Counted from the first letter of the stretch, positions 9,503 to 32,000 are shown. The stretch: 32,000 bases of DNA from Thermofilum adornatum (GCF_000446015.1 NC_022093.1:1410001-1442000); one strand, 5' to 3'. A program made the numbers and translations. The notes: generated by a model from the letters alone, not told the origin.

Positions 9503-9535
9503 ACGCGTGGAAAGAGGTAGGTAGGTGGAGGCAAG

Positions 9536-11258: not shown

Positions 11259-11267
11259 AAAATATAT
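11259..11267 (+). promoter_or_regulatory. TATA-like box for PaREP1 copy 2.
   Basis: aaaatatat is centred about 31 nt upstream of the ATG at 11294. Confidence 0.35.
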
Positions 11268-11293
11268 GATTCACTAGATAGTGATAAAGGATT

Positions 11294-12078: not shown

Positions 12079-12729
12079 CTACTCTATTATGCTTCCGCAT
12101 ATAACCTCTATACCCAGCTGTCTAGCCCTATCATAAGCCTCCTTATCAACGTTCACGGCGACCAAAAACACCCCGCTCACGCTCTTCGCCAAGTATTTCT
12201 CGACAGCCCTCACCTTCTCGTAAAGAGCCTCGACATGGTCCAGCTCAGCCCTAGACTTCACCTCCACCAAGTAGAGCTTCCCATCCCTAACAGAGACATC
12301 TATGTCAACAATCCTCCCCCTCACCCCAGTAATGCTCCCATCCCTATCCGTAAACCTCAGCTTTTCCACCTTGCCAGGCTCGATCCCCCTTTTTTCTAGC
12401 TCCTCCCTGAATATCTCAAGCACCATCCTCTCAAGATCCTCCCCCCACCCCCTTCCCATGCTCCCAATGGTAACCTCAACCCTCATACTTAACTTGTTGA
12501 AGTCCTCCCTAAGCTTCTTCATCTCAGCGTTAAAGTCTCCTCTCAGCTTACTCATCTCGGTGTTGAAGTCTTCCCTAAACTTCTTTATTTCGTTGACTAC
12601 CTTGTTGAATTTCCTGTCATGCCTCTCCAGCCTCCTCAGGACATCGCCGTACCCAAGCTTCCCGGCTACCATCAGCCTGAACTCCCTATCCTCGTCTAGA
12701 AGCCTTAGAAACTCCCCCCTCAGGTTCAC
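12079..12729 (-). CDS. Coiled-coil (hendecad repeat) protein with a C-terminal PD-(D/E)xK-like nuclease-fold domain. Paralog of 988-1815.
   Basis: The ORF is listed to 12897, but homology with the 988 paralog begins at the GTG at 12729 (VNLRGEFLRLLDEDREFRLMVAGKLGY). The C-terminus IVDIDVSV...LYLVEVKS is a D..D...E-x-K motif. Confidence 0.65.
   Translation of the reverse strand: MNLRGEFLRLLDEDREFRLMVAGKLGYGDVLRRLERHDRKFNKVVNEIKKFREDFNTEMSKLRGDFNAEMKKLREDFNKLSMRVEVTIGSMGRGWGEDLERMVLEIFREELEKRGIEPGKVEKLRFTDRDGSITGVRGRIVDIDVSVRDGKLYLVEVKSRAELDHVEALYEKVRAVEKYLAKSVSGVFLVAVNVDKEAYDRARQLGIEVICGSIIE
12496..12594 (-). repeat. Tandem array of 3 x 33 bp encoding the hendecads [KS]K[FL]R[EG]DFN[TAK][EL][MS].
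   Basis: Plus-strand units are gttgaagtcctccctaagcttcttcatctcagc, gttaaagtctcctctcagcttactcatctcggt and gttgaagtcttccctaaacttctttatttcgtt. Confidence 0.85.
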
Positions 12730-12991
12730 ACGAAAAAATAGGATCGAGAGATACAAAAACACACCACTGATAGCAACCTTAAACCCTTCCGAAAGTTCCA
12801 CTCGCCTATCACACCGCCTCAAACATCCAATACTGAAAACAAAGAAAAAGCCCCAACAAATCGGAGACCCCTCACACCTCCATGAATACACATACACCTC
12901 AGAGGACCATAATTACCATCAGAAGAGGCTTACATGATAACATCCCTTCCAAGAAAACTCAGCCACATGCAACAAATCAGGCAGAACGTGC

Positions 12992-13111
12992 CTCTGGGTC
13001 GACGAGCCACCACCCGAAAGGAACCTAGACCTCGGCATCGGCAAGCACATAGCCCAGCAAACAACAATACACAGAGAAGCGGTCAAAAAGGCGCTAGAGA
13101 ATGCTGAGTAA
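12992..13111 (+). pseudogene. 3' remnant (about 39 codons plus stop) of an archaeal-ATPase paralog.
   Basis: It translates to LWVDEPPPERNLDLGIGKHIAQQTTIHREAVKKALENAE*, which aligns with the C-terminus LWVDQPPPEKDPQLGIGRHIAWQTPLHREAVKKALEEFAR* of 8078-9094. Similarity stops abruptly upstream of about 12990. Confidence 0.65.
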
Positions 13112-13908: not shown

Positions 13909-14979
13909 ATGAAGGGCGTCGTTCTCCACGGGGGCCTAGGCACACGTCTCCGACCCCTAACGCACACAGGGCCCAAACAGCTTCTCCGTATTGCTGGAAA
14001 GCCTGTCTCACAGTGGGTCCTAGAAGACCTACGGGAAGCAGGAGTACGGGACGTCGCAATCATACTTGGAAACCTAGCTCCCGAGAGGGTCGTAGAGTAC
14101 TATGGGGACGGCTCCTGGCTAGGCTTGAACCTCACCTACATCTACCAGGGATACCCCTACGGCCTTGCACACGCAGTATACCTTGCAAGGGACTTCGTGG
14201 GTGACGAGCCTTTCGTCGTCTACCTCGGGGACAACGTGATACTCGAGGGCATAACACACTTCGCCAAAAAGTTCGAGGAAACCGATGCAGAGGCAATGGT
14301 CCTCCTGACAGAGGTAGAGAACCCCCAGCGCTTCGGCGTAGCCAAGTTCCAGGACGGGAGGCTTGTAGGCTTCATCGAGAAGCCAAAGATACCGCCAAGC
14401 ACCCTAGCACTCGTCGGCATATACTTCTTTAGGTCCCCAAAGGTCTTCGGGGTCATCGAGTCCCTAAGGCCGAGCTGGAGGGGCGAGCTAGAGATAACAG
14501 ACGCGCTCCAGGGGCTCATCGATAGGGGACTCAAGGTCGAGTACGGCGTGATCAGGGGCTGGTGGAAAGACACGGGGACTCCACAAGACATATTGGAGGC
14601 CAACAGGCTTCTCCTAGACGCGAAGTACAGGGAAAAAGTGGTCAAAGGCCAGGTTCAGGCTTCAAGCGTAGAGGGCAGGGTCTACATAGAGGAGGGCGCG
14701 GCCATTAGGAACAGCACGGTAAGGGGACCCGCATTCATAGGCTCGGGCACAGTCATCGAGGACTCCTACATTGGTCCCTACACGAGCATAGGCAGAAACT
14801 GCAAGTTCACACGGGTAGAGGCAGAGAACAGCGTATTCATGGACGGGGTCCAGCTAGAAGACATACCAGAAAGGATCACAGACAGCATTATAGGCGCAGA
14901 GGCAATAATCAGAAGCAATTCTTCAAAGCCCAAAGGCCTAAAACTAATAGTCGGAGAAAAATCAGTGATCGAGATATGA
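13909..14979 (+). CDS. rmlA: Glucose-1-phosphate thymidylyltransferase, long archaeal form with a C-terminal left-handed beta-helix domain.
   Basis: It has the GGLGTRLRPLT nucleotidyltransferase motif, hexapeptide-repeat-like C-terminus (VEGRVYIEEGAAIRNSTVRGPAFIGSGTVIEDSYIG), and operon context with rmlB/D/C. Confidence 0.8.
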   Translation: MKGVVLHGGLGTRLRPLTHTGPKQLLRIAGKPVSQWVLEDLREAGVRDVAIILGNLAPERVVEYYGDGSWLGLNLTYIYQGYPYGLAHAVYLARDFVGDEPFVVYLGDNVILEGITHFAKKFEETDAEAMVLLTEVENPQRFGVAKFQDGRLVGFIEKPKIPPSTLALVGIYFFRSPKVFGVIESLRPSWRGELEITDALQGLIDRGLKVEYGVIRGWWKDTGTPQDILEANRLLLDAKYREKVVKGQVQASSVEGRVYIEEGAAIRNSTVRGPAFIGSGTVIEDSYIGPYTSIGRNCKFTRVEAENSVFMDGVQLEDIPERITDSIIGAEAIIRSNSSKPKGLKLIVGEKSVIEI

Positions 14980-15977
14980 GGCTACTCGTTACCGGCGGGG
15001 CAGGCTTCATGGGCTCAAACTTTGTACACTACATCTATGCCTCGCGCCCAGACGCAGAGATCCTCGTATACGACAAGTTCACCTACGCCGGCAGAATAGA
15101 GAACCTAAAAGAGCTGGACACCTCGAGGGTCAAGATAGTTAAGGGAGACATCCTAGACCAAGAAAAATTCACTGAGACCCTTAAAGCTTTCCAGCCAGAC
15201 TACGTTGTACACTTTGCCGCCGAAACCCACGTAGACAGGAGCATAAAGGACCCTTCCATATTCATAGACGTAAACGTCAAGGGCGTATACATTATACTCG
15301 AGGCTCTACGCAGACACGACGGCCCCAAGCTCATACACATATCCACAGACGAGGTATACGGAGACATATCAGGCGAACCAGTAACAGAGGAAGCCCCCTT
15401 CAAGCCCAGTAGCCCATACAGCGCCAGCAAGGCGTCCGGAGACCTCCTCTGCCAAGCATACTGGAGAACATACAGCCTACCCGTAAGGATAGTCCGGCCC
15501 TCCAACAACTATGGGCCCAGACAGTTCCCAGAAAAACTAATACCCAAAACAATCCTACGCGCACTGAACGGTTTGCCGATACCAGTCTATGGCGACGGCT
15601 CCCAGGAGAGGGACTGGCTCTACGTCGAAGACTTCTCCAGGGGCCTGGAAACAATAATACTCAGAGGCAGAGACGGCGAGGCATACAACCTCCCAGGACT
15701 AAACCCCAAAACAAACATCCAAGTCATACAAGACATACTCACGCTCCTCGGCAAGCCCCACAGTCTCATAACATTCGTCCCAGACAGGCCCGGACACGAC
15801 AAGAGATACGCGATGAGGGGAGACAAGGTACTCAGCCTAGGCTGGAAGCCCCAGACACCCTGGCTAGACGGGCTCAGAAAAACAATCGAATGGTACAAGG
15901 CAAACGAGTGGTGGTGGAGGCCCCTCCTAGGAGACGAGTTCTTCTCAAAAGACACTCCCTGGGGTGGGACAAGATGA
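14976..15977 (+). CDS. rmlB: dTDP-glucose 4,6-dehydratase.
   Basis: Rossmann motif VTGGAGFMGSNF and SDR catalytic motif YSASKASGD are present. The product is 333 aa. The start overlaps the rmlA stop (ATGA). Confidence 0.9.
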   Translation: MRLLVTGGAGFMGSNFVHYIYASRPDAEILVYDKFTYAGRIENLKELDTSRVKIVKGDILDQEKFTETLKAFQPDYVVHFAAETHVDRSIKDPSIFIDVNVKGVYIILEALRRHDGPKLIHISTDEVYGDISGEPVTEEAPFKPSSPYSASKASGDLLCQAYWRTYSLPVRIVRPSNNYGPRQFPEKLIPKTILRALNGLPIPVYGDGSQERDWLYVEDFSRGLETIILRGRDGEAYNLPGLNPKTNIQVIQDILTLLGKPHSLITFVPDRPGHDKRYAMRGDKVLSLGWKPQTPWLDGLRKTIEWYKANEWWWRPLLGDEFFSKDTPWGGTR

Positions 15978-16870
15978 GGGTACTCGTTACTGGTGGAAGC
16001 GGGCTACTAGGCTCAGTCCTAGTAGAAATGCTTGCACAGAACGGCCACAGCGTTATTGCCACGTATAATGCCCACGAGCCTAGACAAATACAGGGCGTAA
16101 AATGGGTCAAGATAGACATCTCTAGGGGCTATTTGCTCGAGGACCTCGCATGGAAAGAGAAGCCCCACGCAATAATACACAGCGCCGCCATGACAGACGT
16201 AGACAAGTGCGAGATAGAAAAAGAAAAGGCATGGAAAACAAACGTAGAAGCAACCAGGAGCGCCGTGAGGGCCGCCAGGGCCGTAAACGCCCACATAATA
16301 TACATATCAACAGACTACGTCTTTGACGGAGAAAAGGGAAACTACGGGGAAGAAGACCTCCCAGCCCCAGTCAACTACTACGGACTCACAAAGCTCGTAG
16401 CAGAAGAAATAGTCAGGACAAGCGACGTCCTATACACAATCGTAAGGCCCAGCGCCATATACGGCCTAGGCGGTAGCAAGAAAAGCTTCGCAGAATACGC
16501 CGCAGACAAGCTCACAAGGGGAGAAGAAGTCCCAGCACTCGTAGACCAATACGTATCCCCAACATACAACAGGTACCTAGCTTCTGCGATACTCAAGATA
16601 CTCGACACGCGTCCCCTCGGCACAATCCACGTGGCGGGACAAAGGACAAACAGGTACGAATTCGCCCTAACAATAGCCGACATACTCGGCGCCCCAAAAA
16701 ACCTAGTCAAACCAGCAAAAACCCAGGACATGAAGCACTGGCTGGCCAGGAGGCCAAGAGACTCCAGCCTAGACACCTCAAAGGCAAACAGGCTACTAGG
16801 ATATACACACGAAAATAATAAAGCCCTCCAAGACTTCGTAAAAGAGTACCTCGAAAAGAGGCGTCCCTGA
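15974..16870 (+). CDS. rmlD: dTDP-4-dehydrorhamnose reductase.
   Basis: MRVLVTGGSGLLGS begins at the ATG at 15974, which overlaps the rmlB stop (ATGA). The listed upstream extension from 15890 lies inside rmlB. YGLTKLVAE is the YxxxK motif. Confidence 0.85.
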   Translation: MRVLVTGGSGLLGSVLVEMLAQNGHSVIATYNAHEPRQIQGVKWVKIDISRGYLLEDLAWKEKPHAIIHSAAMTDVDKCEIEKEKAWKTNVEATRSAVRAARAVNAHIIYISTDYVFDGEKGNYGEEDLPAPVNYYGLTKLVAEEIVRTSDVLYTIVRPSAIYGLGGSKKSFAEYAADKLTRGEEVPALVDQYVSPTYNRYLASAILKILDTRPLGTIHVAGQRTNRYEFALTIADILGAPKNLVKPAKTQDMKHWLARRPRDSSLDTSKANRLLGYTHENNKALQDFVKEYLEKRRP

Positions 16871-17400
16871 TGGCACTAAAAAACGTTAGGGAGCTAGCCC
16901 TCCCAGGAGCAAAACTCGCAGAACTAGAACGCTTCGTAGACGAGCGAGGTCTCTTCCACGAGCTAATCCGCGCCGACTGGGATCAGCTGCTAGGCGACGA
17001 CAAGCTCCTACAGGCAAATCTCTCAGTAACATTCCCAGGAATAGTAAGGGCCTGGCACCGCCACCTAAGAGGCCAAGTAGACTACTTCTTCGTAGCCAGG
17101 GGATACGCAAAGATATGCGCATACGACGACACCACACAAGCCCTGCTAGAAGTAGTCCTAAGCGGAGACAAGCCACAAATACTACGCATACCCGGACACT
17201 ACTGGCACGGCTTCAAGGCAATAGGCCAAGAACCAGTCTACCTAATATACTTCGTAAACAAGCTATACGACTACCAAAACCCAGACGAAGAAAGACGCCC
17301 ATGGAACGACCCACAAATAGTCCCCAACACAATCAACGGCAAAAAAGACGACCCACGAACAGGCAAACCATGGGACTGGTTCCACCCACCACACAAATAA
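16870..17400 (+). CDS. rmlC: dTDP-4-dehydrorhamnose 3,5-epimerase (cupin).
   Basis: 176 aa with ERGLFHE, RAWHRH and HYWHGF motifs typical of RmlC. The start overlaps the rmlD stop (TGATG). Confidence 0.85.
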   Translation: MALKNVRELALPGAKLAELERFVDERGLFHELIRADWDQLLGDDKLLQANLSVTFPGIVRAWHRHLRGQVDYFFVARGYAKICAYDDTTQALLEVVLSGDKPQILRIPGHYWHGFKAIGQEPVYLIYFVNKLYDYQNPDEERRPWNDPQIVPNTINGKKDDPRTGKPWDWFHPPHK

Positions 17401-18918: not shown

Positions 18919-19345
18919 TAATAGAATAGAAATCTCAATACGAAGCCTCCCCATTGTAAAAGACTGGAGCCAAATGGCTCTTTCACTTTTCACTAAATTC
19001 AACTTTACCCAATTGCTCACAACTCTTATGCAACAAGTTCTACCTCGGCTCATTCATCCCCAGAAAATCCAAGGCATAACAATATCCAGCTCTCCCAACA
19101 TCGGTCCCTACATACTCATCGAGCTTGACCTAAATGCCAGCGAAGCATTCAAGATATGGGAAAACCTTGCAGACACACTATACCCTCAAACAAGGGTGCC
19201 AGTATTCGTTGTCTGGAAAGGCGAAATGGATCTAAGCCCGTCTGACTTTGGAAAAAGACTGGCAGAAATACTCGCCAAGATGAACACATCCCTCTTCACA
19301 CTAACCCACCCCGTCGACCTCACAAAAGAACTCAGCGAGGAATGA
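18911..19345 (+). CDS. Hypothetical protein of 144 aa.
   Basis: Its start overlaps the upstream stop by 8 nt, and its stop overlaps the PIN gene start (ATGA). I see no recognisable motifs. Confidence 0.5.
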   Translation: MSSNRIEISIRSLPIVKDWSQMALSLFTKFNFTQLLTTLMQQVLPRLIHPQKIQGITISSSPNIGPYILIELDLNASEAFKIWENLADTLYPQTRVPVFVVWKGEMDLSPSDFGKRLAEILAKMNTSLFTLTHPVDLTKELSEE

Positions 19346-19920
19346 GCTCCGCCTGCTACCTAGACGCCAACATAATAATCGCGCTGCTTTTCCCTACAGA
19401 CGCCCACCACAAAAACTCATTAGAAAGAGTATACCATCTCAACATGCAGGGAACAAGACTTGTAACATCAACTTATGCCCTCGTCGAGGTAACAAGAAAC
19501 ACTCTACACACATTAAGTCAACTCGAGCAAGGCAAATACATATTCGCCGAGCCCCTGCCCCAATACATACGGCTCCTCCAAAACCTCAACCCAAACCAAC
19601 GCTGCGAGGCCCTTCTCAACTATATCATTTCCTACATTAAAAACGGCTTCCACATCGAAGTAATCGAACAGGAATACCTCTACGAAATAGAAACAACCAA
19701 CAATACAAAAATAGCCAAACTCTTCCACGAGGCCATAAAGCTCTCATGGATAAATATAAGGACAAAAGACCTACTCCACATAGCAATAGCCAACCTCCTA
19801 AAAACCCACGGAGTCAAATGCATCATCACAGCGGACAAAACCGACTTTGAGCCAATCAAGCAGACCCTAGAAAAAGACCTCGACCTAGAAGTAGAAATCC
19901 TAACCACACAACAATCATAA
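19342..19920 (+). CDS. PIN-domain (VapC-like) ribonuclease.
   Basis: 192 aa. The acidic PIN residues are in the expected order: YLDANIIIALL (D), YALVEV (E), TKDLLHIAIA (D) and IITADKTDF (D). Confidence 0.65.
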   Translation: MSSACYLDANIIIALLFPTDAHHKNSLERVYHLNMQGTRLVTSTYALVEVTRNTLHTLSQLEQGKYIFAEPLPQYIRLLQNLNPNQRCEALLNYIISYIKNGFHIEVIEQEYLYEIETTNNTKIAKLFHEAIKLSWINIRTKDLLHIAIANLLKTHGVKCIITADKTDFEPIKQTLEKDLDLEVEILTTQQS

Positions 19921-19986: not shown

Positions 19987-21129
19987 ATGAGTAGCGAGGA
20001 GCCAGACGTAACATTCATTTTTCCCTCAAAAAACGAGGAAAAAACAATCGCAGAAGTCATACAAAAAGCCCAAAAAGCCGCCCAGCAACTCGGCCTAACA
20101 TACGAAATCATAGTCCCAGACAACTCCACAGACGCCACCCCACAAATAGCCACAAGCCTCGGAGCAAAAGTAGTCACACCAGACAAGCACGGCTACGGCT
20201 ACGCCTACATATACGCCCTCAGGCACGCAAGGGGCAAATACATAGTCATGGCAGACGCAGACGGCACATACGACCTAGAAGAAGCACCAAAACTCCTACA
20301 GCCACTCCTCCAAAACGAGGCAGACATAGTCCTAGGAACACGCCTAAAAGGCAAAATAATGCCGGGCGCAATGCCATGGCTCCACAGGTACATAGGAAAC
20401 CCCCTCCTAACATTCATCCTCAACAAGTTCTACGGAACAAACGTCTCCGACGCCCACACAGGCTTCAGGGCCGCCAAGAGACAGGCAATACAAAAACTAA
20501 ACCTAAACACCCCAGGAATGGAGTTCGCCTCAGAACTCCTAGCAAAAGCCGCCTACCTAAAACTCCGCATAACAGAAGTCCCAATAACCTACTACCCACG
20601 CAGAGAAGGAACACAATCAAAGCTAAACAGCTTCCGTGACGGCTGGCGCCACCTAAAATACCTACTCATACTAGCCCCCAAGTTCCTCTACTACATCCCC
20701 GGCGCAGCCATGCTCATTACAGGCATCGCACTAATGCTAGCCTCAGTCCTACGTGCCAACCTCGGATACTCCCCAGGAATACACTCAGCCATACTAGGAA
20801 GCATGCTAACAATACTAGGAAACACCCTCACAGGACTCGGACTAATAGCAGACCTCCACCTAGCCAAAACAACCGGAAAACCCACAAGCAGAATCACCAA
20901 CATACTCGTAAAACTCACAGTCGAAAAAACCCTAGCAATAGCCGCCACCCTCATCACGCTGGGACTACTTTACACACTCTACCTATTCGCCATATGGATA
21001 CAATCAGGATACAGATATCTACCGCTACGAGGAGAAAACGCTTTAGCCCTAACACTTATCGTCCTAGGCGCCCAAACAGCGGCAACAGCACTAACAGCAC
21101 ATCTCATCCGGGCAGAACAACGAAACTAG
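19987..21129 (+). CDS. GT2 glycosyltransferase with a C-terminal 4-TM domain (dolichyl-phosphate hexosyltransferase-like).
   Basis: The motifs VTFIFPSKNEEKTI, VPDNSTDATP and VMADADGTYD (DxD) are present. Hydrophobic helices occupy residues about 230-375. Confidence 0.8.
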   Translation: MSSEEPDVTFIFPSKNEEKTIAEVIQKAQKAAQQLGLTYEIIVPDNSTDATPQIATSLGAKVVTPDKHGYGYAYIYALRHARGKYIVMADADGTYDLEEAPKLLQPLLQNEADIVLGTRLKGKIMPGAMPWLHRYIGNPLLTFILNKFYGTNVSDAHTGFRAAKRQAIQKLNLNTPGMEFASELLAKAAYLKLRITEVPITYYPRREGTQSKLNSFRDGWRHLKYLLILAPKFLYYIPGAAMLITGIALMLASVLRANLGYSPGIHSAILGSMLTILGNTLTGLGLIADLHLAKTTGKPTSRITNILVKLTVEKTLAIAATLITLGLLYTLYLFAIWIQSGYRYLPLRGENALALTLIVLGAQTAATALTAHLIRAEQRN

Positions 21130-24875: not shown

Positions 24876-24914
24876 AGCGTAAAAAATTAATAAATTGTGA
24901 TAGATAGAAACAAA

Positions 24915-26150
24915 ATGAGTAAAGATACAAAACTTGTAATAGTATGTAACTACACCTTTCCTCTAGCAGGAGCACCTTGGAGAAGAATTGAATATTTTTC
25001 AAACTTTCTCTCTAGATACAAAATGGATGTAACTGTCATAGGAGCAATTGAATTAGGCAGAGAAACTTCTAAAATGATTAAAGCTATTAGGGGAATAAAA
25101 TACGACAAGTTCAGAGTATTTAATTTGCAATGGCGTATTGGAATATTTGCTCTAATAATTGAAATCTTTAATTTCATAGGAACTTTCCCCTTATTAATAA
25201 TTTTACCCGTGTTAAAACCTAAGATAGTTTATATTTCTATACCTTATATTGAAACATTGCCCACCGCATATTTAGTAGCTAGGTTAATAGATGCAAAAAT
25301 AGTTATAGATGTACGTGATCCATTGGAATACTGGCCAAGCTGGACAAAAGGTTTTACTCGAAAATTTTTTGGTTTTCTTACTTTGCTTGATTACATACTT
25401 ATGCGTAAATCTGACCTTGTTCTAGCGGTTACTCCTGGCTTAATTAGGCTCCTCGCACAACAAGGCATAGTTGCACATCTTGTAATGAATGGCGCTGATA
25501 CGCAAATTTTTCGGCCTTATCCTCGTAGCGAAGTTAGAAGAAAACTTGGCCTAAACGATGATGCCATAGTGCTTGTCTTCAGCGGTCGCTTAGGCGGCTA
25601 CTACGACGCTATCCCCCTCCTTCATGGAATAGCTAGGTTGTCGAATGCGCTAAAGAAGAAAGTGGTATTGTTGCTCGTCGGAGGTTTTGGAGACGCATCA
25701 TATGCGAGTAAGTTTGTGCGAATAGCGAAGGAGCTGCATTTATCCAGCAACATAAAGGTTCTGCAACCGATACTAGATGCGCGTACGCTGGCGGAGGTCC
25801 TTTCAGCCGCGAACGCGGGGGTCGTCACGCATGTGACCTCGGAGCTGTACGACCCGGCAATACCAGTGAAGTTTTATGAGTACTTAGCTTGCGGCCTCCC
25901 CGTTATAGCTTTGAGTAGGCGCGGCTCGGAGCTCTGGAGGCTGATCGAGAAGTGGGGGGTGGGTTTTGCGTGCGAGCAGCACGACCTTGATTGCATTACG
26001 AGAGCTTTGGAAAAAATCTTTGACGAAAGCACTATGGAAAGCATCAGGGCTAATGTCCTTCGCGTAAGACTCCTTATCGATAGGCGCCGAGCTGCGGAGA
26101 AGCTGTACAGCTTGCTCCGCGAACTGCTGGAGCCCAAGAGGGATGCTTAA
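24915..26150 (+). CDS. GT-B fold (GT4-like) glycosyltransferase.
   Basis: The C-terminal domain has VLVFSGRLGG...FYEYLACGLPVIA, an E-x7-E-type region. The ATG at 24915 is preferred to the listed GTG at 24897. Confidence 0.7.
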   Translation: MSKDTKLVIVCNYTFPLAGAPWRRIEYFSNFLSRYKMDVTVIGAIELGRETSKMIKAIRGIKYDKFRVFNLQWRIGIFALIIEIFNFIGTFPLLIILPVLKPKIVYISIPYIETLPTAYLVARLIDAKIVIDVRDPLEYWPSWTKGFTRKFFGFLTLLDYILMRKSDLVLAVTPGLIRLLAQQGIVAHLVMNGADTQIFRPYPRSEVRRKLGLNDDAIVLVFSGRLGGYYDAIPLLHGIARLSNALKKKVVLLLVGGFGDASYASKFVRIAKELHLSSNIKVLQPILDARTLAEVLSAANAGVVTHVTSELYDPAIPVKFYEYLACGLPVIALSRRGSELWRLIEKWGVGFACEQHDLDCITRALEKIFDESTMESIRANVLRVRLLIDRRRAAEKLYSLLRELLEPKRDA

Positions 26151-26153: not shown

Positions 26154-29100
26154 GTGAGCAAGGGAGGAGTAGCTGGCTCTGTAAGGCGCGCTGTTATGAG
26201 AAGCGAGATCTTGCTAGTGACACTGGTAATTTTTCTTGCATCCTTGCTATCCTTCATCGTTGCCATCTATGTTTATTACCCGTGGCCCGAAAAACTGGTG
26301 ATACACTCCTCGCTGATTGCGTTTTCCTTTTTCATCGCCGTTTGGAGGCCTGGTAAGCAGCTTCGTATACTGCTACGGTTGCCGCGAAGAACCGTCGCAC
26401 TTTTACTCGTAGCAGGCTTTGTCGCGTTGGTTGTTGCAAGCATAATACCGATTCCCTGGCTGGCGTTGTTCCTTGCGCTAATGTACGCTGCCCCTGTAGT
26501 CGGAGTTTCGTTGGCAGAGGCATTAAAGCTCAGAGGGATTTTTGACGATGCAGTAGGCTTCGCGTTATTTTCCTTCATCATTGGTTCAACGTTCTTCGGA
26601 GTTATAGCGTTGGGTGCTTCCCTTTTCTTAGGCTTTCCGGGAAACCGCTACGCTGTGTTGGTGCTTGTGGCTTTGCATACAATCCATGTTGTTGGTATCT
26701 ACTCGAAAAAATCTAAAAGCCAATTAATTGAAATGAAAGGTGATAGTCTTTTGTTCATAAGCTCTTGGTTAACGCTCATCTATAATTTCTACCTGATATA
26801 CTATCCAAACGATGTGTATCTTCCGGGCGAGGACATGCTGCGACATTACATGTGGTCGGTAAATCTCGTAAGAAACCCCTGGAAATTCCTAAGCCTCAGC
26901 CCCGATAATTACCTGGTTTTCCACTCGTTCGAAGGGGGGCTCATGCTTTTGGCGAACTGCTACGACGCTCCGCTTCTCAACAGCGTTCTCCTGCCCGTAG
27001 CTCTCCTGAGCACGCTGGCGCTAGCCCAGCTTACCGCTAATGTCGCCGGGAACCCCGCATCCAGAAACATTGCGCTGATACTCCCGTTCGTCTTCTCGGG
27101 TTTGGGCTGGCTCTACCTCCTCCTCAACAGGCCGGCGAGCCCTGCGGCGTACTTCGCAGCTCTGGCGAGCGGTAGCGAAAAAGTGTACAGAAATTTAATG
27201 TACATACCGTTTCCGCTTATGTGGCCCGTACCTCAGCCCTTCTCGGTCGCCGCCTTTCTTCTCTTCCTGTCCCTCCTTCTTAAGATGGTTAAGCTGCAGG
27301 GCACGCTTCCTGGATCTGCTGTCGCAGCCGGCTTGCTGATGTTCTCGATGCTGTCCACGCACCCCCCGCAGGGTATTATGGCGGCAGCGCTCCTCACGCT
27401 GTTGGCGCTCCTTTGGGGCAAAAGCCTTTCCAGCGCCCTGAAGCCCATCTGTCTGGGAGCGCATGCAGGCGCGCTCGCGGGAGGAGCGCTCAATATGGCA
27501 ACGGTTTACCTCGCTCTTCAGGGTGCGCCCCGCTTAGAGAACCTTATGCTGCTGCGCGTTGCGGCTTTCTTCGCGCCAGCACTAGCAGCGGCAGCCGCGC
27601 TCGCCCTCAGCTCTTTCGGTATAGGGTTGGAGCCCTTGTTCGCGAGACTGGCCAAGCGCTTGCGCGTGCGAGCCCCTGTAGCGTCGGCGTTGGGCACTTT
27701 CCTGCTTATTTTAGGGGTTTCCGTCGCCTTAGACCCCTCCAACACCTTCGCTACGAGCAGGGCGGATCCGGGATGGGTTGTAGGTCTGGTGCCCTGGTTC
27801 ATCTACGCGATCTTATTGGGCGCAGCTTTGCCGCTAGGGTTATACGGTTACGAGCTGCTAGCTCGCGAAGGCTCGAAAGCTCCAGTCGCTGTGCTGGGTC
27901 TGCTCGCGGCTCTCGCTGTCGCTGTGGGCAGAACCCTAGGTTTTTTCAACGCCTCTGGGATCGACACGGGCTACTGGGGCGAAAAGAGGTTCGTCCTTTT
28001 CGTTTACATCGCGCTAGCGCCACCCGCCGCCTACGCGTTAGAGCGACTCGCCCGTGGCAGATCCCTGAGAGTCGCTATCCTCAGCCTTCTGCTGGCCCTT
28101 TTGGCCGTCAACGCGGCGGTAAGCGCCTCGTACTGGGGCATCACGAGTGAGCGCGGGAGGATAAGCGATACCGAGAAGGCGGCCTTCGATAAGCTGGGCG
28201 AGCTGCTATGGGCCAACCCGAACCGGTGGGTTTTTTCGCCCACGCTCCGGAGCAGGGACGCCTCTGCCTTCGCGGCGCCGATCTACTATGTCTTCGCGGA
28301 TCCCTCCTACAGCTGGCGGTGGCAGGTTCCCGAGCTCTCGCTCGCGATCTTTAGGGCTAGGAACTTAGACCCGCCCTACGTCTACATCAACTGGGCGACG
28401 AACTCGCAGCCCGCCCGCTCTGGCTGGATCGGCAGGATCCTCCTGCCCCGCCTGCCTAAGCTGTTCAGCGTGGGCTCGATCGACGTGTACGACGCGCCCC
28501 TGCTGGCGCCGCCGGTCCCCAACGGAAGCGTGGCGCTCGCGATCCCGCCCGTCTGGGACGAGTCAGTCGACGAGGCCTACCTCCTCCTCTCGCTGGCGGG
28601 AGTGAACTTCACAAGTGTGCTGGGGATTGACCCCTCTCTCTACAGCTACAGGGTTATTGTCCTGCCTTATGACACATCAGAGGAGAACAGGACAGTTACC
28701 ATTGATTTACTCAGCACCCCCATTGCATTTACCAGCGGTTCCGTGAATCTCGACTCTGAGTCAGTCGAGCTTGGTGGTCGCCAGGAGAGACTAGGCAACA
28801 TTGTGGTGTGGAGGAACCCATTCTATCTATTCCCTGAGGCGATAAATGTTACCGTGAGGTTTGAGGTGAGGGAGTACAACCCAAAGGTTCTAAACTATTT
28901 TTACTTCATTTATGATTTCAAGGATGAGGGGAACTATCGGTACGTGGGAGTAATGTTTACGGAGCAAAATAAGGTATACATGCTTAACTGCTTGGTTACA
29001 AACGGTAAAGCTTATTGCATACCAGCTTGGCCGGGTATTTTTTTAGGGAATATTGATAGAGTAACTGGAGATCATTTATTGAATCTTTCCTTTAATTTTT

Positions 29101-30089
29101 CGAAGAGAGAACTCTGTACGACTTTAGACGCATTAAATCGAACTTGTTTTAACATAAGCTTTAGCGGGGGATCCATCGGGGTGCGTGTGGATCGCTTTTG
29201 GGCGGTAAAGGTAAAAGAGATGTTTATCACTACACGCATTCGTAACTACCTGAACTTAGAGAGGCTAAAAGCTGAGAACCGCACGCTTATAGTTTTTCAG
29301 CGAAAGCCTGTCACCAATGAAACAGGGGAAATTAGATATGGGGAAAACCTGACAATTTATGGGGAACAAATTCTAGATAACAAAACACATATAAATTCTA
29401 CTTTTATACCGGAGAGATACTATAGTGAAATTAATTATGCTAATTTGGTTGCTAGCAATATTACTTTTTATAATCTAAGTCTGACAGCGTCTAATCTATT
29501 AGTGATCCCACTTGACTCTTTACGGGTTTATCAGCATAACAAAATTCAGAATTTAACATCAGTTAGATATTTAATAATCGAAAGTCCCTCTGAAAAGGTT
29601 CTCAATGCTTTTTACGTGCAGGCAAACGTTAAAGGTGGCATAGGTTTCTACGCCAAGCTTGAAGCTGATAGGATGTATGTTCCAAATGGGAACGTTAGCG
29701 TGTATTTTGATGATGGCGTTATTAGTGAGCTGAAAGGAGACTTATTATTTGAGGGTAAATTCTTGGTGCTGGCTAGGAGGCCTATTTTCACGGCTCAGCG
29801 CTCGGTTATTAGGGGGGTGTTTGGGCAATCCTTGCTTTATCCCTACTTAGCTCGCGACTTAATTGTAATTGGAAACGCAACGTTTAGATTTGTTCGTGGT
29901 GATGACTCCTTTTTATATTTCTTTGTAGATGCTAGCAATTCTAAGATTATGTTTGACCCCTCCCTTAACATTTACTCAGAGTGGGAATCTGTGCCGTTGG
30001 TGCTGAAGTACTCGTATTGGATTATAGTTATTATCTGTGTTTTTATTGCAAAAAGATTGCAACGTTTGTTGAAGAGGAGGAGGCCATGA
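26154..30089 (+). CDS. Polytopic membrane protein of 1311 aa with a large sequon-rich extracytoplasmic C-terminal domain and a terminal TM anchor. Possibly a GT-C-like glycosyltransferase or glycan polymerase.
   Basis: More than 15 hydrophobic helices occupy the first 700 residues or so. By my count the last 500 residues or so hold 18 N-x-S/T sequons. The final helix is YWIIVIICVFIA followed by the basic tail KRLQRLLKRRRP. No WWDYG motif is present. The start is GTG 26154 or ATG 26196. Confidence 0.75.
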   Translation: MSKGGVAGSVRRAVMRSEILLVTLVIFLASLLSFIVAIYVYYPWPEKLVIHSSLIAFSFFIAVWRPGKQLRILLRLPRRTVALLLVAGFVALVVASIIPIPWLALFLALMYAAPVVGVSLAEALKLRGIFDDAVGFALFSFIIGSTFFGVIALGASLFLGFPGNRYAVLVLVALHTIHVVGIYSKKSKSQLIEMKGDSLLFISSWLTLIYNFYLIYYPNDVYLPGEDMLRHYMWSVNLVRNPWKFLSLSPDNYLVFHSFEGGLMLLANCYDAPLLNSVLLPVALLSTLALAQLTANVAGNPASRNIALILPFVFSGLGWLYLLLNRPASPAAYFAALASGSEKVYRNLMYIPFPLMWPVPQPFSVAAFLLFLSLLLKMVKLQGTLPGSAVAAGLLMFSMLSTHPPQGIMAAALLTLLALLWGKSLSSALKPICLGAHAGALAGGALNMATVYLALQGAPRLENLMLLRVAAFFAPALAAAAALALSSFGIGLEPLFARLAKRLRVRAPVASALGTFLLILGVSVALDPSNTFATSRADPGWVVGLVPWFIYAILLGAALPLGLYGYELLAREGSKAPVAVLGLLAALAVAVGRTLGFFNASGIDTGYWGEKRFVLFVYIALAPPAAYALERLARGRSLRVAILSLLLALLAVNAAVSASYWGITSERGRISDTEKAAFDKLGELLWANPNRWVFSPTLRSRDASAFAAPIYYVFADPSYSWRWQVPELSLAIFRARNLDPPYVYINWATNSQPARSGWIGRILLPRLPKLFSVGSIDVYDAPLLAPPVPNGSVALAIPPVWDESVDEAYLLLSLAGVNFTSVLGIDPSLYSYRVIVLPYDTSEENRTVTIDLLSTPIAFTSGSVNLDSESVELGGRQERLGNIVVWRNPFYLFPEAINVTVRFEVREYNPKVLNYFYFIYDFKDEGNYRYVGVMFTEQNKVYMLNCLVTNGKAYCIPAWPGIFLGNIDRVTGDHLLNLSFNFSKRELCTTLDALNRTCFNISFSGGSIGVRVDRFWAVKVKEMFITTRIRNYLNLERLKAENRTLIVFQRKPVTNETGEIRYGENLTIYGEQILDNKTHINSTFIPERYYSEINYANLVASNITFYNLSLTASNLLVIPLDSLRVYQHNKIQNLTSVRYLIIESPSEKVLNAFYVQANVKGGIGFYAKLEADRMYVPNGNVSVYFDDGVISELKGDLLFEGKFLVLARRPIFTAQRSVIRGVFGQSLLYPYLARDLIVIGNATFRFVRGDDSFLYFFVDASNSKIMFDPSLNIYSEWESVPLVLKYSYWIIVIICVFIAKRLQRLLKRRRP

Positions 30090-30826
30090 CTGAAATACGC
30101 GAAACCGAAGAGCCTGTCGAGCTGAGTGTCTGGGATTTGAGCGGAAGAGAGAGGCATAAGCAGGAACGCAGGGCGCAAGTAACAGCTTGGTTCCTAAAAC
30201 CTGGAGAGCGAGATGTTATCATGGATGTTGGCTGTGGTGATGGTTTTGTGACTAGCTTCTTCTTAAAGGCCGGCTTCGTGGTGGGTTTGGAGCCTTCGTA
30301 TCACTCACTCGAGATTGCCAAACGTAAGGTACCTAAGGGTAATGTCCAGTTTATTTGCGCTGATGCGCGCTTTATTCCTTTGAGAGCCAACTCAATAGAT
30401 AAGGTGGCTATACTTGAAGTTTTGGAGCACTTGCCCCGAGCTTCTCAACAAATGGTTATTGAGGAAATCGATAGAGTTTTGAAAAAAGGTGGGATTCTCG
30501 TCGTCACGGTGCCTTACAAGGAAAAGATTATTTATACCCGCTGTATCCACTGTGGAAAGCTGACTCCATTGTGGGGCCACTTACATTCTATGGACGAGGA
30601 GAAGGTTAACAAACTCTTACCTCCGAGCTACGTGCTTGTAGCCAAAGCGCATTTTCCAAATCTAGAATTAATATCGATGTTAGGTATTTTTCATAGATTA
30701 CCATTTCCATTATGGTTTATTATTAATAATTTCCTTGGAATTATAAAAAAAGGATATTGGATCTTGGTCAAATATAAGAAATTTTTAAATGAATGTAAAA
30801 TTAGAGAAAAACCCATTATTGAGTGA
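30086..30826 (+). CDS. Class I SAM-dependent methyltransferase with a CxxC element.
   Basis: It has motif I VIMDVGCGDGFVT, then ILEVLEHL, LKKGGILVVTVP and CIHCGK. The ATG at 30086 overlaps the upstream stop (ATGA). Confidence 0.75.
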   Translation: MTEIRETEEPVELSVWDLSGRERHKQERRAQVTAWFLKPGERDVIMDVGCGDGFVTSFFLKAGFVVGLEPSYHSLEIAKRKVPKGNVQFICADARFIPLRANSIDKVAILEVLEHLPRASQQMVIEEIDRVLKKGGILVVTVPYKEKIIYTRCIHCGKLTPLWGHLHSMDEEKVNKLLPPSYVLVAKAHFPNLELISMLGIFHRLPFPLWFIINNFLGIIKKGYWILVKYKKFLNECKIREKPIIE

Positions 30827-30830
30827 GATA

Positions 30831-31052
30831 ATGTTAACTCCAAATCGTATCTGTGTAATTGGGCTGGGGTATGTTGGTTTGCCTACTGCTGTTGTTTTTG
30901 CTGGCAAGGGGTATGAAGTTGTTGGTGTGGATGTTGACGCTAAGAAGGTTGAGGCTGTGAATGATGGTAGGTGTTATTTGAGGGAGCCTGGGCTGGACGT
31001 TCTTTTGTGTGACTCAGTGTCTAAGGGGTTTTTGAGGACTAGCGCGCTCTAG
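30831..31052 (+). pseudogene. Truncated N-terminal fragment (about 73 codons) of a UDP-sugar 6-dehydrogenase (WecC/Ugd-like).
   Basis: MLTPNRICVIGLGYVGLPTAVVFAGKGYEVVGVDVDAKKVEAVNDGRCYLREPGLDVLL is the Rossmann N-terminus of enzymes that are normally about 400+ aa. The frame stops at 31052. Confidence 0.55.
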
Positions 31053-31069: not shown

Positions 31070-31086
31070 AATGAGGAGTGGGCTGT

Positions 31087-32000
31087 ATGAAGATTCTTTC
31101 CGTGGTCGGGGCTAGGCCCAATTACGTTAAGTTGGTAGCGGTACACGATGTCTTCTCAAGGTTTTTCGAGCACGTTGTAGTGGATACTGGCCAGCATTAT
31201 GATTATGAGATGAATAGGGTGTTTTTCGAGCAGCTGGAGGTTCCAGAGCCGGACTACTTCCTAGGTGTAGGGAGCGGCTCTCACGGGTACCAGGTGGGGG
31301 AAATTGTTAAACGGGTGGAGGAGGTTTTGCAGAGGGAGCGACCTGACTTTGTGGTTGTTTATGGAGATACGAACTCGACTCTGGGTGGCGCGCTTGCGGC
31401 TGTGAAGGCGGGGTTTAGGGTTGGGCATGTGGAGGCTGGGTTGAGGAGTTTTGATATGTCGATGCCGGAGGAGGTGAATAGGAGGGTTGTGGATCATGTG
31501 TCGCATTTGCTTTTTGCGCCTACTGGGAGTGCGTATAGGAATTTGTTGGCTGAGCGGGTTCCTGGCAGGGTCTTTGTTACGGGTGATGTTCATGTTCGTG
31601 CTTTGAAGAGGTGGCTTCCTATAGCGGAGGAGAGGTCTCATGTGTTGGAGAGGCTTGGGCTGGATCCTGGCTATGTGGTTGTAACTCTTCACCGGGCTGA
31701 GAATACCGATGACCCAGCACGCCTTTCCAAGATTGTTGGTCTGCTGGTTGGTCTTGCTAGGCGGGAGCGTGTGGTTTTTCCTGTTCATCCGAGGATCAGG
31801 AAGAGGCTTGTCGATTTGGGTCTCTGGGAGGGTCTTAGCGGTAGCGGTATTGTTTTGTCGGAGCCTTTGGGCTATTTGGACTTTCTAAAGTTGCTGAGTA
31901 ATAGTCGGCTTGTGGTTACTGATTCTGGTGGTGTTCAGAGGGAGGCATACCTCTTAAGGAAGCCCGTAGTTGTTTTGCGTGGGGTCACGGAGTGGGTCGA
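31087..32000 (+). CDS. wecB: UDP-N-acetylglucosamine 2-epimerase (non-hydrolysing). The 3' end lies outside the window.
   Basis: My own translation gives MKILSVVGARPNYVKL...VVVYGDTNSTLGGALAA...VGHVEAGLRSFD..MPEEVNRR..DHVS..LFAP...VTLHRAENTD...VFPVHPR...TDSGGVQREA. The gene is absent from the ORF track because no stop occurs before the window end. Confidence 0.85.
   Translation, partial: MKILSVVGARPNYVKLVAVHDVFSRFFEHVVVDTGQHYDYEMNRVFFEQLEVPEPDYFLGVGSGSHGYQVGEIVKRVEEVLQRERPDFVVVYGDTNSTLGGALAAVKAGFRVGHVEAGLRSFDMSMPEEVNRRVVDHVSHLLFAPTGSAYRNLLAERVPGRVFVTGDVHVRALKRWLPIAEERSHVLERLGLDPGYVVVTLHRAENTDDPARLSKIVGLLVGLARRERVVFPVHPRIRKRLVDLGLWEGLSGSGIVLSEPLGYLDFLKLLSNSRLVVTDSGGVQREAYLLRKPVVVLRGVTEWV

Follow-up and report, generated by a model that had tools for sequence, protein, structure and literature searches.

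The gene and its neighbourhood

On the plus strand of the window (the whole 32,000-nucleotide stretch of Thermofilum adornatum DNA that was analysed) lies a real open reading frame of 1311 codons with a GTG start, in the company of rmlABDC, an AglJ-like GT2 gene, three further GT2 genes, a GT4 gene and a methyltransferase gene. Neighbours of this glycosylation type bear out the proposal of an earlier note, made from the sequence, that the large gene forms part of a locus for glycan assembly. The genes considered here are:

19987..21129, plus strand: AglJ-like GT2 of the dolichyl-phosphate hexose synthase type (TIGR04182, E 7.7e-53)
24897..26150, plus strand: cognate GT4 glycosyltransferase, GT4a, with its stop codon 3 nt ahead of the large gene
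26154..30089, plus strand: the large gene, 1311 aa
30086..30826, plus strand: SAM-dependent methyltransferase, in ATGA overlap with the large gene

The overlap, at 30086-30089, consists of the ATG of the methyltransferase gene (30086-30088) and the TGA of the large gene (30087-30089), in agreement with the translational coupling that had been proposed. Proteins sharing a 90%-identity cluster with the large protein are annotated 'hypothetical protein' of T. adornatum (WP_148684582.1 / AJB41743.1), and near-identical annotated proteins are present in this species, strain 1505 among them. Direct searches of Pfam, NCBIfam and PDB sequences returned zero matches for the 1311-aa protein. It belongs to an undescribed family: a profile search recovered 238 clusters with the same architecture, and a genome scan placed members in Bathyarchaeia, Nitrososphaeria (ammonia-oxidising archaea) and other Thermoproteota.

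Gene order is kept in this family down to about 20% identity, with GT4a followed by the large gene and then by GT4b and/or one or more methyltransferase genes. GT4a represents an orthologous group, and all loci inspected for this gene have an ortholog of it directly before the large gene. The second GT4 of the relatives, GT4b, is encoded downstream of the large gene or, in one member (P0062), forms a domain fused beyond the C-terminal TM anchor, i.e. on the cytoplasmic tail. Several related loci carry a methyltransferase gene at most two genes downstream, or adjacent on the opposite strand. Among 89 ORFs neighbouring the gene at 24 loci, 32 GT4, 13 GT2, 9 NDP-sugar enzymes and 8 methyltransferases were counted; Wzx, Wzy, ABC-transporter and STT3 families were all missing from the 25 families listed for these loci, and no small flippase gene was seen. 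In the family, the AglJ-like gene is not among the conserved neighbours; it possibly belongs to the same system as the supplier of a Dol-P-sugar donor.

Domain organisation and topology

The large gene (plus strand throughout) is divided as follows:

26154..26738: N-terminal extension with six TM helices, residues 1-195, without STT3 counterpart
26739..28136: STT3-like 13-TM core, residues 196-661, delimited by hhalign, conservation and topology
26832-26834, 27360-27362, 27981-27983 and 27987-27989: nearly invariant outer-face core residues D227, H403, E610 and R612, respectively
28137..28823: membrane-proximal alpha/beta domain, residues 662-890, conserved family-wide (its AlphaFold2 model is unreliable)
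28830..29237: predicted ConA-like beta-sandwich 1, residues ~893-1028 (AlphaFold2, block-mean pLDDT 60-91)
29442..29960: predicted ConA-like beta-sandwich 2, residues ~1097-1269 (AlphaFold2, block-mean pLDDT mostly 72-93, with two dips of 56-63)
29991..30089: C-terminal TM anchor and basic cytoplasmic tail, residues 1280-1311, plus the stop codon

The protein has about 20 TM helices in all, 19 in residues 1-663 and the C-terminal anchor. The number of 19 was read by hand from the helices of an AlphaFold2 model and a hydropathy scan, the latter giving 15 non-overlapping hydrophobic peaks in the same residues. Lysine plus arginine amount to 33/117 in the predicted inner loops versus 10/143 in the outer loops, and the predicted topology places D227, H403, E610 and R612 all on the outer face. 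The restriction of sequon enrichment to the predicted external part and the GT4 domain behind the anchor in P0062 speak for the same topology. The family-invariant G117 lies within the N-terminal extension. Sub-threshold matches to DUF1616 (Pfam) were obtained for 3 of 34 relatives (best E 4.9e-6) and none for the window protein itself; the sole match inspected, in P0064, scores 24 bits (gathering threshold, 31.6 bits) over residues 88-177, a region corresponding to this extension.

The single TM helix near the C-terminus (about 1280-1300) and the basic tail behind it (KRLQRLLKRRRP) are as first described. A soluble-looking C-terminal domain is also present as claimed, with its onset at about residue 662 and not at 820; the extracellular part comprises 618 residues. 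Recounting the N-x-S/T sequons gave the same 18 versus 1 as before: of 19 in total, the TM part (residues 1-663) contains a single one, and the other 18 belong to the extracellular stretch 664-1279, where composition-preserving shuffles predict 5.3 (z = 6.5). This density is the highest in the family, which as a whole shows a 1.63-fold enrichment, in the extracellular domain only. The extracellular domain is very probably itself N-glycosylated.

Conserved in the membrane-proximal domain are E674, S700, P726-E727, the NFT sequon at 818-820 and D826; position 750 is N in the window protein and D in 75 of 76 relatives. As modelled, the distal extracellular part consists of two ConA-like (LamG/galectin/CBM-like) beta-sandwiches. 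Taken together, the two were matched by Foldseek to tandem LamG/LNS structures (laminin LG4-5, neurexin LNS) and to tandem galectins (E 1.5e-5 to 1e-4, probability 0.97-1.0). For sandwich 1, the family profile also matched the CBM66 of levanase 4azz (E 0.009), and relatives have Pfam matches to CBM_11, Laminin_G_3 and 3keto-disac_hyd.

Remote relationship to STT3

The earlier note could not assign the protein to any family. This is now superseded, since profile comparison identifies it as a very distant STT3/AglB relative, a remote member of the STT3 superfamily that is devoid of WWDYG. In hhalign, a profile of 76 family sequences was linked to STT3/AglB/PglB profiles of 45-72 sequences with a probability of 96.9-97.0% (E 1.4e-10 to 8.8e-11; 476-486 columns), the linked stretch being residues ~200-755, and reversed-sequence controls of the same comparison reached 6-7%. 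A profile confined to the Thermofilum clade gave 79% (E 1.6e-5) in an unchanged register. An STT3 HMM matched 11 family members weakly, each time with HMM positions 377-502, and two of four STT3 sub-clusters gave no signal when used alone.

In this alignment D227 (invariant, 76/76) coincides with the catalytic EL1 Asp of STT3 (DPYxxxR; hhalign confidence 7-9) and R612 (75/76) with the Arg that begins the third-last core helix of STT3 and is nearly invariant there (confidence 9). In PglB, that Arg contacts the lipid phosphate. Conservation of D227, H403, E610 and R612 extends to 75-76 of the 76 sequences for each, and H231 and position 406 are further nearly invariant outer-face sites of the core, the latter being Q here and E in 71 of 76 relatives. 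With Q at 406 and N at 750 the window protein may be less active than its relatives.

Over its first 90 or so residues the membrane-proximal domain aligns with the beginning of the external domain of STT3, its own first helix pairing with the STT3 helix that precedes WWDYG (confidence 7-9). At the position of WWDYG itself the profile alignment has an 8-column gap; it stops about 60 columns further on, which sets the limit for comparing the DK/MI motif of these enzymes. Neither WWDYG nor a similar motif is found in the 1311-aa protein, as had been noticed before, and the pattern W[WYF]D[YFW]G gave 0 matches among 165 family sequences scanned. The second acidic motif of STT3, in EL2 (RTxxGxxDxE / DxD), has no conserved acidic pair as counterpart in the aligned family region, where there are partial preferences only (D/E at 342 in 39/76, D at 347 in 30/76). 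The position aligned with the TIXE/SVSE Glu of EL5, 542, is V here and E/D in just 30 of 75 relatives.

AlphaFold and Foldseek, suggested earlier as a check, gave fold matches for the distal domains. For the membrane part, the model of residues 1-900 has a pLDDT of 43 and is unreliable, and the Foldseek search with it, which yielded no significant match (AglB 7e9s at rank 11, E 0.59), is meaningless, so that the GT-C fold is read here from the sequence profiles. Searches of Pfam/NCBIfam with the protein at E up to 10 gave no match to Wzy_C / O-antigen ligase or polymerase, Wzx/MOP flippase, PMT_2/ArnT, YfhO or DUF2206/2298-type GT-C families, and none of these was detected in 34 diverse relatives at E up to 0.01-0.05. 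A profile comparison with ArnT was negative, with an ArnT alignment too shallow for this to count.

Proposed function

With moderate confidence we favour the view that the product of the large gene is a GT-C glycosyltransferase of STT3/AglB descent, competent in catalysis, which no longer reads N-x-S/T sequons. Among the roles contemplated in the earlier note (GT-C-type transferase, glycan polymerase or chain-length factor, N-glycosylated envelope protein) it is the first that is favoured by the STT3 profile link and the in-register alignment of the invariant Asp. The deletion of the WWDYG loop, together with the attachment of two ConA-like lectin-type domains, makes a carbohydrate the most likely acceptor, and the reaction would then polymerise, ligate or branch a surface glycan instead of modifying a sequon Asn. 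The donor is presumably a dolichol-linked glycan. What the analysis establishes is the homology, the conservation of the outer-face residues, the topology, the lectin-like fold, the GT4 partnership and the distribution of the family, while catalysis, a lipid-linked donor and the nature of the acceptor are inferred.

We propose that GT4a, the other GT2/GT4 enzymes of the locus and the methyltransferase would build a glycan on dolichol phosphate or pyrophosphate at the cytoplasmic face, joined in the relatives by the second GT4, encoded downstream or fused to the tail. After flipping to the outer face, the dolichol-linked carrier would be bound there by the 13-TM STT3-like core, with R612 contacting the phosphate and D227 plus H231, H403, residue 406 and E610 serving as the putative catalytic and metal-binding site. 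The core would then pass the glycan on to its acceptor, which the extracellular part would hold in place. More tentatively, the family as a whole might be an archaeal glycan polymerase/ligase that arose from an N-oligosaccharyltransferase and that, together with two dedicated GT4 partners, makes or attaches, in Thermoproteota, a surface polysaccharide or a glycan other than N-linked that has so far gone unrecognised. If this is true, the family fills the Wzy/WaaL role in Thermoproteota including soil and marine ammonia oxidisers and Bathyarchaeia, lineages in which we know of no archaeal enzyme for that role.

It is unusual for GT-C enzymes to be so closely linked, physically, with cytoplasmic GT4 enzymes, an arrangement that would fit an export scaffold as well. 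Such an STT3-derived, non-catalytic or export-type membrane protein would dock the cytoplasmic GT4s and guide or flip the glycan, lipid-linked or still growing, through the membrane, and the lectin-like domains would receive it outside. The tight, conserved gene spacing with GT4a and the tail fusion of GT4b in P0062 are compatible with this idea, as are the six TM helices that STT3 does not have, the degeneration of several STT3 catalytic motifs and the lack of a flippase or transporter among the 25 families listed for the neighbourhoods. We nevertheless regard it as rather unlikely. Pfam/NCBIfam searches of the protein and its relatives detected no transporter family, and a passive scaffold would hardly account for the conservation of D227, H403, E610 and R612 on the outer face, a pattern usually seen in active sites.

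WWDYG binds the Ser/Thr at position +2 in PglB and AglB structures and is, to our knowledge, universal in known oligosaccharyltransferases. Its absence from all 165 family sequences, matched by the gap in the profile alignment, and the lack of conservation of the EL2 acidic motif and the TIXE Glu make it improbable that the large protein is still an N-oligosaccharyltransferase, that is, a second, locus-dedicated AglB paralog that recognises its acceptor without WWDYG and transfers the glycan of the locus to Asn. Such a paralog would be in line with the STT3 homology, the retained EL1 Asp and conserved Arg, the position of the gene in a glycan cluster and the precedent of archaea with several AglB paralogs (PMC3703281). 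A published gene inventory of Nitrososphaera viennensis, however, reports a single aglB, with WWDYG, and lists no member of our family under that name (PMC12153357).

The family's highest sequon density, the lectin-like fold and a distal domain that diverges fast and is mosaic between alleles would fit a protein that mainly serves as a heavily N-glycosylated surface component (adhesin, envelope component or virus-exposed antigen), with the membrane part as its anchor. This is very unlikely: a 19-helix membrane domain with invariant polar residues and STT3 homology exceeds a mere anchor, and the operon link to GT4 enzymes is conserved.

Composition step and module boundary

The mid-gene switch in composition, placed by the earlier note at 28.62 kb, is real by quantitative GC3 analysis and lies 200-370 nt further downstream:

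28820..28995, plus strand: GC3 change-point zone (0.67 to 0.38), at the module boundary where the relative L002 is split by an in-frame stop

The likelihood plateau covers codons 887-947 (window 28.82-28.99 kb) and the gain in log-likelihood is 39-42, which is highly significant; total GC begins falling at about 28.65 kb. Marked GC richness, ascribed before to the first 700 residues or so, applies to codons 220-900 only (GC3 0.7-0.9), the first 220 codons having a GC3 of about 0.5. The step separates a conserved membrane-proximal module (1-890) from the distal beta-sandwich module and is not where the membrane and soluble parts meet.

The switch had been taken to suggest that the extracellular domain was acquired or exchanged separately. 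It is no proof of acquisition: the module of two beta-sandwiches and a TM anchor occurs throughout a family diverging to about 20% identity, and the same GC3 step is present in 4/4 close Thermofilum alleles examined, so that it predates their divergence and does not reflect a recent acquisition. There is some support for an exchange of the distal domain between alleles, in that nucleotide identity to allele L004 drops from 0.93-0.95 (codons 601-800) to 0.45-0.49 (codons 1001-1200), and the two modules of L002 are separate adjacent ORFs with an in-frame TAA exactly at the module boundary. That split, the fragmented state of L015 and L019 and the composition shift at the junction could also hint at two genes wrongly joined or a pseudogene fusion, which is extremely improbable given the fused architecture of the great majority of full-length representatives listed, of most genome loci and of all close Thermofilum alleles, the origin of the window from a 1.75-Mb contig and the near-identical T. 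adornatum proteins already annotated.

Comparison with known systems

STT3/AglB/PglB (CAZy GT66, GT-C fold) share with the large protein the 13-TM core by profiles (97%, E 1e-10), the N-in topology, an external domain that follows the last core helix and aligns at its start, and the EL1 Asp and conserved Arg in register. The large protein differs from them in having no WWDYG and no conserved EL2 DxD/E or TIXE, in its six additional N-terminal TM helices, in an external part that bears two predicted ConA-like domains and ends in a TM anchor and cytoplasmic tail, and in the conserved operon of its gene with GT4 enzymes; Pfam STT3 and NCBIfam models miss it. Another dark family recently tied to STT3/PglB, by HHpred and Foldseek, is the YfhO-like 'component 27' of about 665 aa, annotated YfhO (Durairaj et al. 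2023, PMC10584680). In contrast to the present family it is bacterial and without lectin-like domains, and the large protein has no Pfam YfhO match.

Three-component GT-C systems consist of a polyprenyl-P-sugar synthase, a flippase and a GT-C enzyme (PMC11127046). An AglJ-like Dol-P-hexose synthase in the locus of the large gene is reminiscent of these systems and of Haloferax AglS, and with it the large protein could add single sugars from Dol-P-sugar to extracellular glycans. Unlike there, no small flippase was seen, PMT_2 or ArnT-type similarity is absent and the AglJ-like gene is not conserved. Wzy polymerases and WaaL/PglL-type ligases (Wzy_C) have no sequence similarity to the large protein, whose membrane core is, by its profile link, STT3-derived. 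The resemblance to them lies in the proposed role, in which a glycan carried on polyprenol would be handed over at the outer face to an acceptor other than Asn, and in the setting, a variable glycan locus whose genes are low in GC and exchangeable.

The mycobacterial EmbA/B/C and AftD proteins are GT-C arabinosyltransferases that carry periplasmic carbohydrate-binding modules and use decaprenyl-P-arabinose as donor. They differ from the large protein in this donor and in belonging to another domain of life; no sequence link was found (no Pfam Arabinose_trans match), and Emb and AftD are not among the best 50 fold matches for the C-terminal model. In both cases, however, a polytopic domain of GT-C type is combined with extracytoplasmic modules, jelly-roll or lectin-like, in which a glycan acceptor could be held, and for transfer to a glycan, as proposed here, EmbA/B/C and AftD offer the best functional analogy.

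The gene and its product

The open reading frame at 26154-30089 on the forward strand is real, comprising 1311 codons with a GTG start, and the observation made on it in the earlier note was confirmed overall. It begins 3 nt past the stop codon of a GT4 glycosyltransferase gene (GT4a), and its TGA and the ATG of a methyltransferase gene overlap in the ATGA described previously. In a hydropathy scan of the protein, residues 1-663 gave 15 hydrophobic peaks that do not overlap, and a further peak lies at about residues 1280-1300; hydropathy combined with the helices of an AlphaFold2 model reads as 19 predicted transmembrane (TM) helices in residues 1-663. The external part is followed by a TM anchor and the tail KRLQRLLKRRRP. 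In an N-in/C-in topology, lysine and arginine make up 33 of 117 residues of the inner loops versus 10 of 143 of the outer loops. One relative (P0062; 1967 aa) carries a GT4 domain fused past the C-terminal anchor, which places the tail in the cytoplasm and hence supports N-in/C-in topology.

The soluble domain that had been noted is present, but it starts at residue 662 and not at residue 820. Its reported density of N-x-S/T sequons was borne out: one of 19 lies in the membrane part and 18 lie in the external loop, which spans 618 residues from the last core helix to the anchor and for which shuffled sequences predict 5.3 (z = 6.5). Across the protein and its relatives (hereafter, the family) enrichment is likewise confined to the external part, with 1031 sequons observed and 634 expected (1.63-fold), as compared with 237 and 220 in the membrane part. 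The sequon NFT at residues 818-820 (DNA 28605-28613), within the membrane-proximal part of the external region, is conserved across the family and reads N-Y-T in 60-70 of 76 relatives; the enzyme may itself be N-glycosylated at this site.

An archaeal family

Neither Pfam nor NCBIfam returned a family match for the whole protein, three fragments of it or distant relatives, and HMMER profiles found no membrane-protein match among PDB sequences. Mates in the 90%-identity cluster (WP_148684582.1 and AJB41743.1) are both annotated 'hypothetical protein'. A word-indexed search yielded only 17 proteins (34-81% identity), those with a source name being from Thermofilum MAGs, and a protein search with a 76-sequence profile added nothing to them. 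When the first 900 residues served as query, an exhaustive profile search retrieved 238 clusters at 50% identity. These relatives, mostly of 1200-1500 aa, are built alike: a polytopic N-terminal region precedes about 600 residues outside the membrane, and an anchor with a basic tail forms the C-terminus. With a degenerate DNA pattern designed by hand from two conserved blocks, 20 genome loci were located, all of them true members by hmmsearch, in Bathyarchaeia, Nitrososphaeria (Nitrososphaera, Nitrosocosmicus, Nitrosopolaris, Nitrosopumilaceae) and other Thermoproteota.

On some contigs, family members occur as paralogous pairs that are adjacent in a Thermoproteota MAG (L020, 392-7998, minus strand) or a few kb apart on one contig, both in another MAG (L008, 7063-12966 and 15497-19699) and in a Nitrososphaera MAG (L012/L017, contig JBBRRH010000048.1). 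A full-length member (L014; hmmsearch score 1033) was found on JAFGAC010000099.1 of a MAG labelled 'Clostridiales bacterium'. This contig is probably mis-binned archaeal DNA; if not, it represents a rare bacterial occurrence of the family.

Conservation was assessed in 76 diverse members, mostly 16-23% identical to the T. adornatum protein. D227 and G556 are invariant (76/76 each), H403, P547, E610 and R612 are each present in 75 members, and H231 in 66. D227, H403/406 and E610/R612 are all predicted to lie in outer-face loops or at helix ends. Three family-typical acidic positions are substituted in the T. adornatum protein (Q406, V542 and N750); position 406 is Glu in 71 and position 750 Asp in 75 of the 76 members.

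Homology to oligosaccharyltransferases

STT3, AglB and PglB are regarded as a single-function family that is defined by the WWDYG motif. A reference set was assembled by scanning metagenomes for the back-translated motif WWDYGY and retaining the 72 ORFs that reached 550 aa, had eight or more hydrophobic segments and carried the motif past residue 350. When aligned to this set with hhalign, the family profile matched over 476 columns (probability 96.9%, E 1.8e-10), family positions 213-754 pairing with STT3 positions 24-569 of 790. The full-length family profile gave 97.0%, and an independently built 45-sequence alignment 96.9% (E 1.4e-10, 486 columns). Upon reversal of either profile the probability fell to 6-7% (score 35-36). 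A profile restricted to the Thermofilum clade reached 79% (E 1.6e-5) in the same register. STT3 sub-clusters taken singly gave 94% in one case and 75% in another, and two others gave no signal. A plain STT3 HMM weakly matched 11 family members, each at HMM positions 377-502.

In the resulting register, helix 196-216 of the T. adornatum protein corresponds to STT3 TM1, the invariant D227 (PGxDIxRHY) falls on the EL1 Asp of STT3 DPYxxxR, and R612 on an Arg that hardly varies in STT3. The external domain opens with a helix (E674..A677..L681..D688) that coincides with the W..aL.WL..N helix preceding WWDYG. Alignment confidence at all these points is 7-9. The WWDY residues themselves fall in an 8-column gap, and no family member has a similar motif, in agreement with the lack of WWDYG pointed out in the earlier note. 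The EL2 motif RTxxGxxDxE has no conserved counterpart in the family, and the position of the TIXE Glu is Val in the T. adornatum protein and carries an acidic residue in just 30 of 75 relatives. The six helices in residues 1-195 are without STT3 counterpart.

An AlphaFold2 model of residues 1-900, made from a 17-sequence alignment, had a pLDDT of 43, and its Foldseek matches were noise. Comparison with ArnT was negative against a profile so shallow (Neff 1.6, its homologs sharing 76% identity or more) that even STT3 missed it. Matches to DUF1616 (sub-threshold), to DUF4350 and GH42M (weak, in the proximal domain) and, in two relatives, to NCBIfam TafC, described in the literature as a haloarchaeal fimbrial subunit, were judged too weak or peripheral.

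Lectin-like domains and exchange of the distal module

AlphaFold2 modelled residues 660-1311 with confidence only at about 893-1028 and 1097-1269, both of which are β-sandwiches. Foldseek related these domains to tandem LamG/LNS domains (laminin LG4-5, neurexin), to tandem galectins and to the lectin-like half of the binding domains of botulinum toxins (E 1.5e-5 to 1e-4, probability 0.97-1.0 overall). Sequence comparison supports this relation: the family profile matches levanase CBM66 (E 0.009), and relatives match Pfam CBM_11, Laminin_G_3 and 3keto-disac_hyd.

A mid-gene switch in composition had been placed at about 28.62 kb. The switch is real, but this position was slightly early: the likelihood plateau that locates the change point in GC3 covers codons 887-947 (28.82-28.99 kb). 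Codons 1-220 have a GC3 of about 0.5 and codons 220-900 one of 0.7-0.9; from codon 900 on it is 0.34-0.46. Four close alleles (L030, L031, L003 and L004) have the same step, from 0.79-0.91 just before it to 0.29-0.40 after it, which is faint or missing in L005 and L001, relatives that are more distant and lower in GC. Since all close alleles have it, the step predates their divergence, and recent horizontal acquisition of the C-terminal module in the T. adornatum genome can be dismissed.

The L004 allele is 93-95% identical to the T. adornatum gene in codons 601-800 and 45-49% identical in codons 1001-1200, and, judged by these identities, its distal-domain cassette is evidently another one. 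L002 encodes the two modules in neighbouring ORFs, with an in-frame TAA at the equivalent of residues 888-895, exactly the site of the composition change. The presence of the distal module across alleles and relatives indicates that it is an ancestral part of the family, which nevertheless evolves and recombines as a unit. The possibility that the ORF might be two genes joined by a sequencing error was rejected because the fused form is the norm in the family. Split members were nonetheless seen: in L002 (7787-11902) an ATG-initiated ORF follows the TAA at the module boundary, in L015 (807-4993) the distal part occupies an overlapping ORF in another frame, and L019 (2623-6528) is in four pieces. 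Natural two-gene variants, pseudogenes and assembly errors are candidate explanations.

The glycan locus and its GT4 partners

Genes of the glycan locus in the window
13909-17400: rmlA, rmlB, rmlD and rmlC
from 19987: AglJ-like dolichyl-phosphate hexose synthase (GT2)
in addition: three further GT2 genes
from 24897: GT4 (GT4a)
adjoining the large gene (ATGA): methyltransferase
30789-31052 (87 codons; match 30846-31043): truncated remnant of a UDP-sugar dehydrogenase
about 31075-32000, forward strand: UDP-GlcNAc 2-epimerase (WecB-like), extending beyond the window end

A GT4 gene lies directly upstream of the large gene in every locus examined, with a gap of at most 34 nt except in L005. The best matches of GT4a are these upstream genes (68% to 29% identity, E from 0 to 6e-39), whereas the other GT4 genes of the same loci match it with E 1e-12 or worse. 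Many loci have a second GT4 gene just downstream, and it is this group to which the GT4 domain of the P0062 fusion is closest. Methyltransferases, UDP-sugar dehydrogenase and epimerase are also frequently encoded downstream. The WecC-like dehydrogenase remnant is N-terminal and covers residues 19-84 of a 449-aa homolog; in L006 and L007 a full dehydrogenase gene occupies this position between methyltransferases and epimerase. The epimerase of the window is 40% identical to that of L007 and, at the DNA level, shares 91% identity with L004. A 175-aa ORF on the opposite strand (31261-31788) is an antisense artefact over it. Among 89 neighbouring ORFs at 24 loci, 32 encode GT4 and 13 GT2 enzymes, 9 NDP-sugar enzymes and 8 methyltransferases; Wzx, Wzy, ABC transporters and STT3 are absent from the 25 families listed in this census. 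Two related clusters include B12-binding radical SAM genes (L002, 2556-4016; L007, 4011-5435), and the rmlC-like ORF (dTDP-sugar isomerase, 16870-17400) has an additional match to Pfam Polysacc_synt_C (E 6.5e-15).

DNA similarity to close alleles begins in the middle of GT4a (about 25.1-25.4 kb) and ends at about 30.0 kb. The N-terminal, acceptor-side half of GT4a shows 18-54% identity, with a GC3 of 0.21-0.27 in the window strain only, as against 67-94% identity (76-94% in the last 140 residues) and a GC3 of 0.5-0.67 in the C-terminal, donor-side half. This half is part of a block of about 3 kb (22.4-25.4 kb; about 30% GC, GC3 0.23-0.25) that also holds two GT2 genes and whose right edge, inside GT4a, is where DNA homology with related strains sets in. 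The difference between the halves thus marks the block as strain-specific; it looks as if the acceptor-side half of this GT-B enzyme had been replaced along with its neighbours.

At positions 1-13000 the window carries several genes that are characteristic of the variable genome in Thermoproteales.

Genes in the upstream part of the window
3704-4234 and 11294-11791: two PaREP1 genes
4379-5185: HepT/nucleotidyltransferase-type ORF
6148-7950: AAA_15/AbiEii-like ATPase with DUF3226 partner
8078-9094: archaeal ATPase
12079-12897, minus strand: DUF3782/PD-(D/E)XK protein
further on, 19342-19920: PIN-domain ORF

Discussion

Profile comparison makes the T. adornatum protein the first example of a previously undescribed branch of the STT3 superfamily in archaea. 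The role in glycan assembly proposed in the earlier note is supported in part and sharpened: the most economical reading is that of an active GT-C enzyme from the oligosaccharyltransferase lineage. Lipid-phosphate and catalytic elements would be retained on the outer face and the sequon-reading loop lost, while the lectin-like domains would be so placed that they can bind a carbohydrate as acceptor. Assembly of the donor on dolichol phosphate would fall to the dedicated GT4 partners together with the variable enzymes of the locus. Polymerising, ligating or branching of glycan are candidate reactions, and a novel mode of protein glycosylation is conceivable. The principal alternative, a scaffold for export or assembly that derives from STT3, accounts for the tight coupling to GT4 but leaves unexplained why Asp, His, Glu and Arg residues on the outer face are invariant. 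If the active enzyme indeed belongs to a sister family, one that kept the membrane catalytic core, lost the sequon reader and gained lectin-like modules, the oligosaccharyltransferase scaffold has been re-used for another acceptor.

The family occurs in ecologically dominant archaea (Nitrososphaeria, Bathyarchaeia, hyperthermophilic Thermoproteota), always in GT4-rich clusters without a detected polymerase, ligase or flippase family, which makes it a specific candidate for a step that is missing from the assembly of surface glycans in archaea and a testable gene for glycoproteomic and EPS work on ammonia oxidisers. In a glycoproteomic study of Nitrososphaerota, N. viennensis is reported to have a single aglB, with WWDYG, and no member of the present family is listed in it as aglB (PMC12153357). 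A literature search found no STT3-like family without WWDYG described. A bacterial YfhO-like family has been linked to STT3 (PMC10584680), but it is unrelated to the present family in length, taxonomy and architecture. Distal-domain type and glycosyltransferase repertoire showed no simple pattern of co-variation in the few loci at hand. The distal domain, which is mosaic and low in GC, and the flanking glycosyltransferase genes suggest strain-level variation of the cell surface, as in bacterial O-antigen loci.
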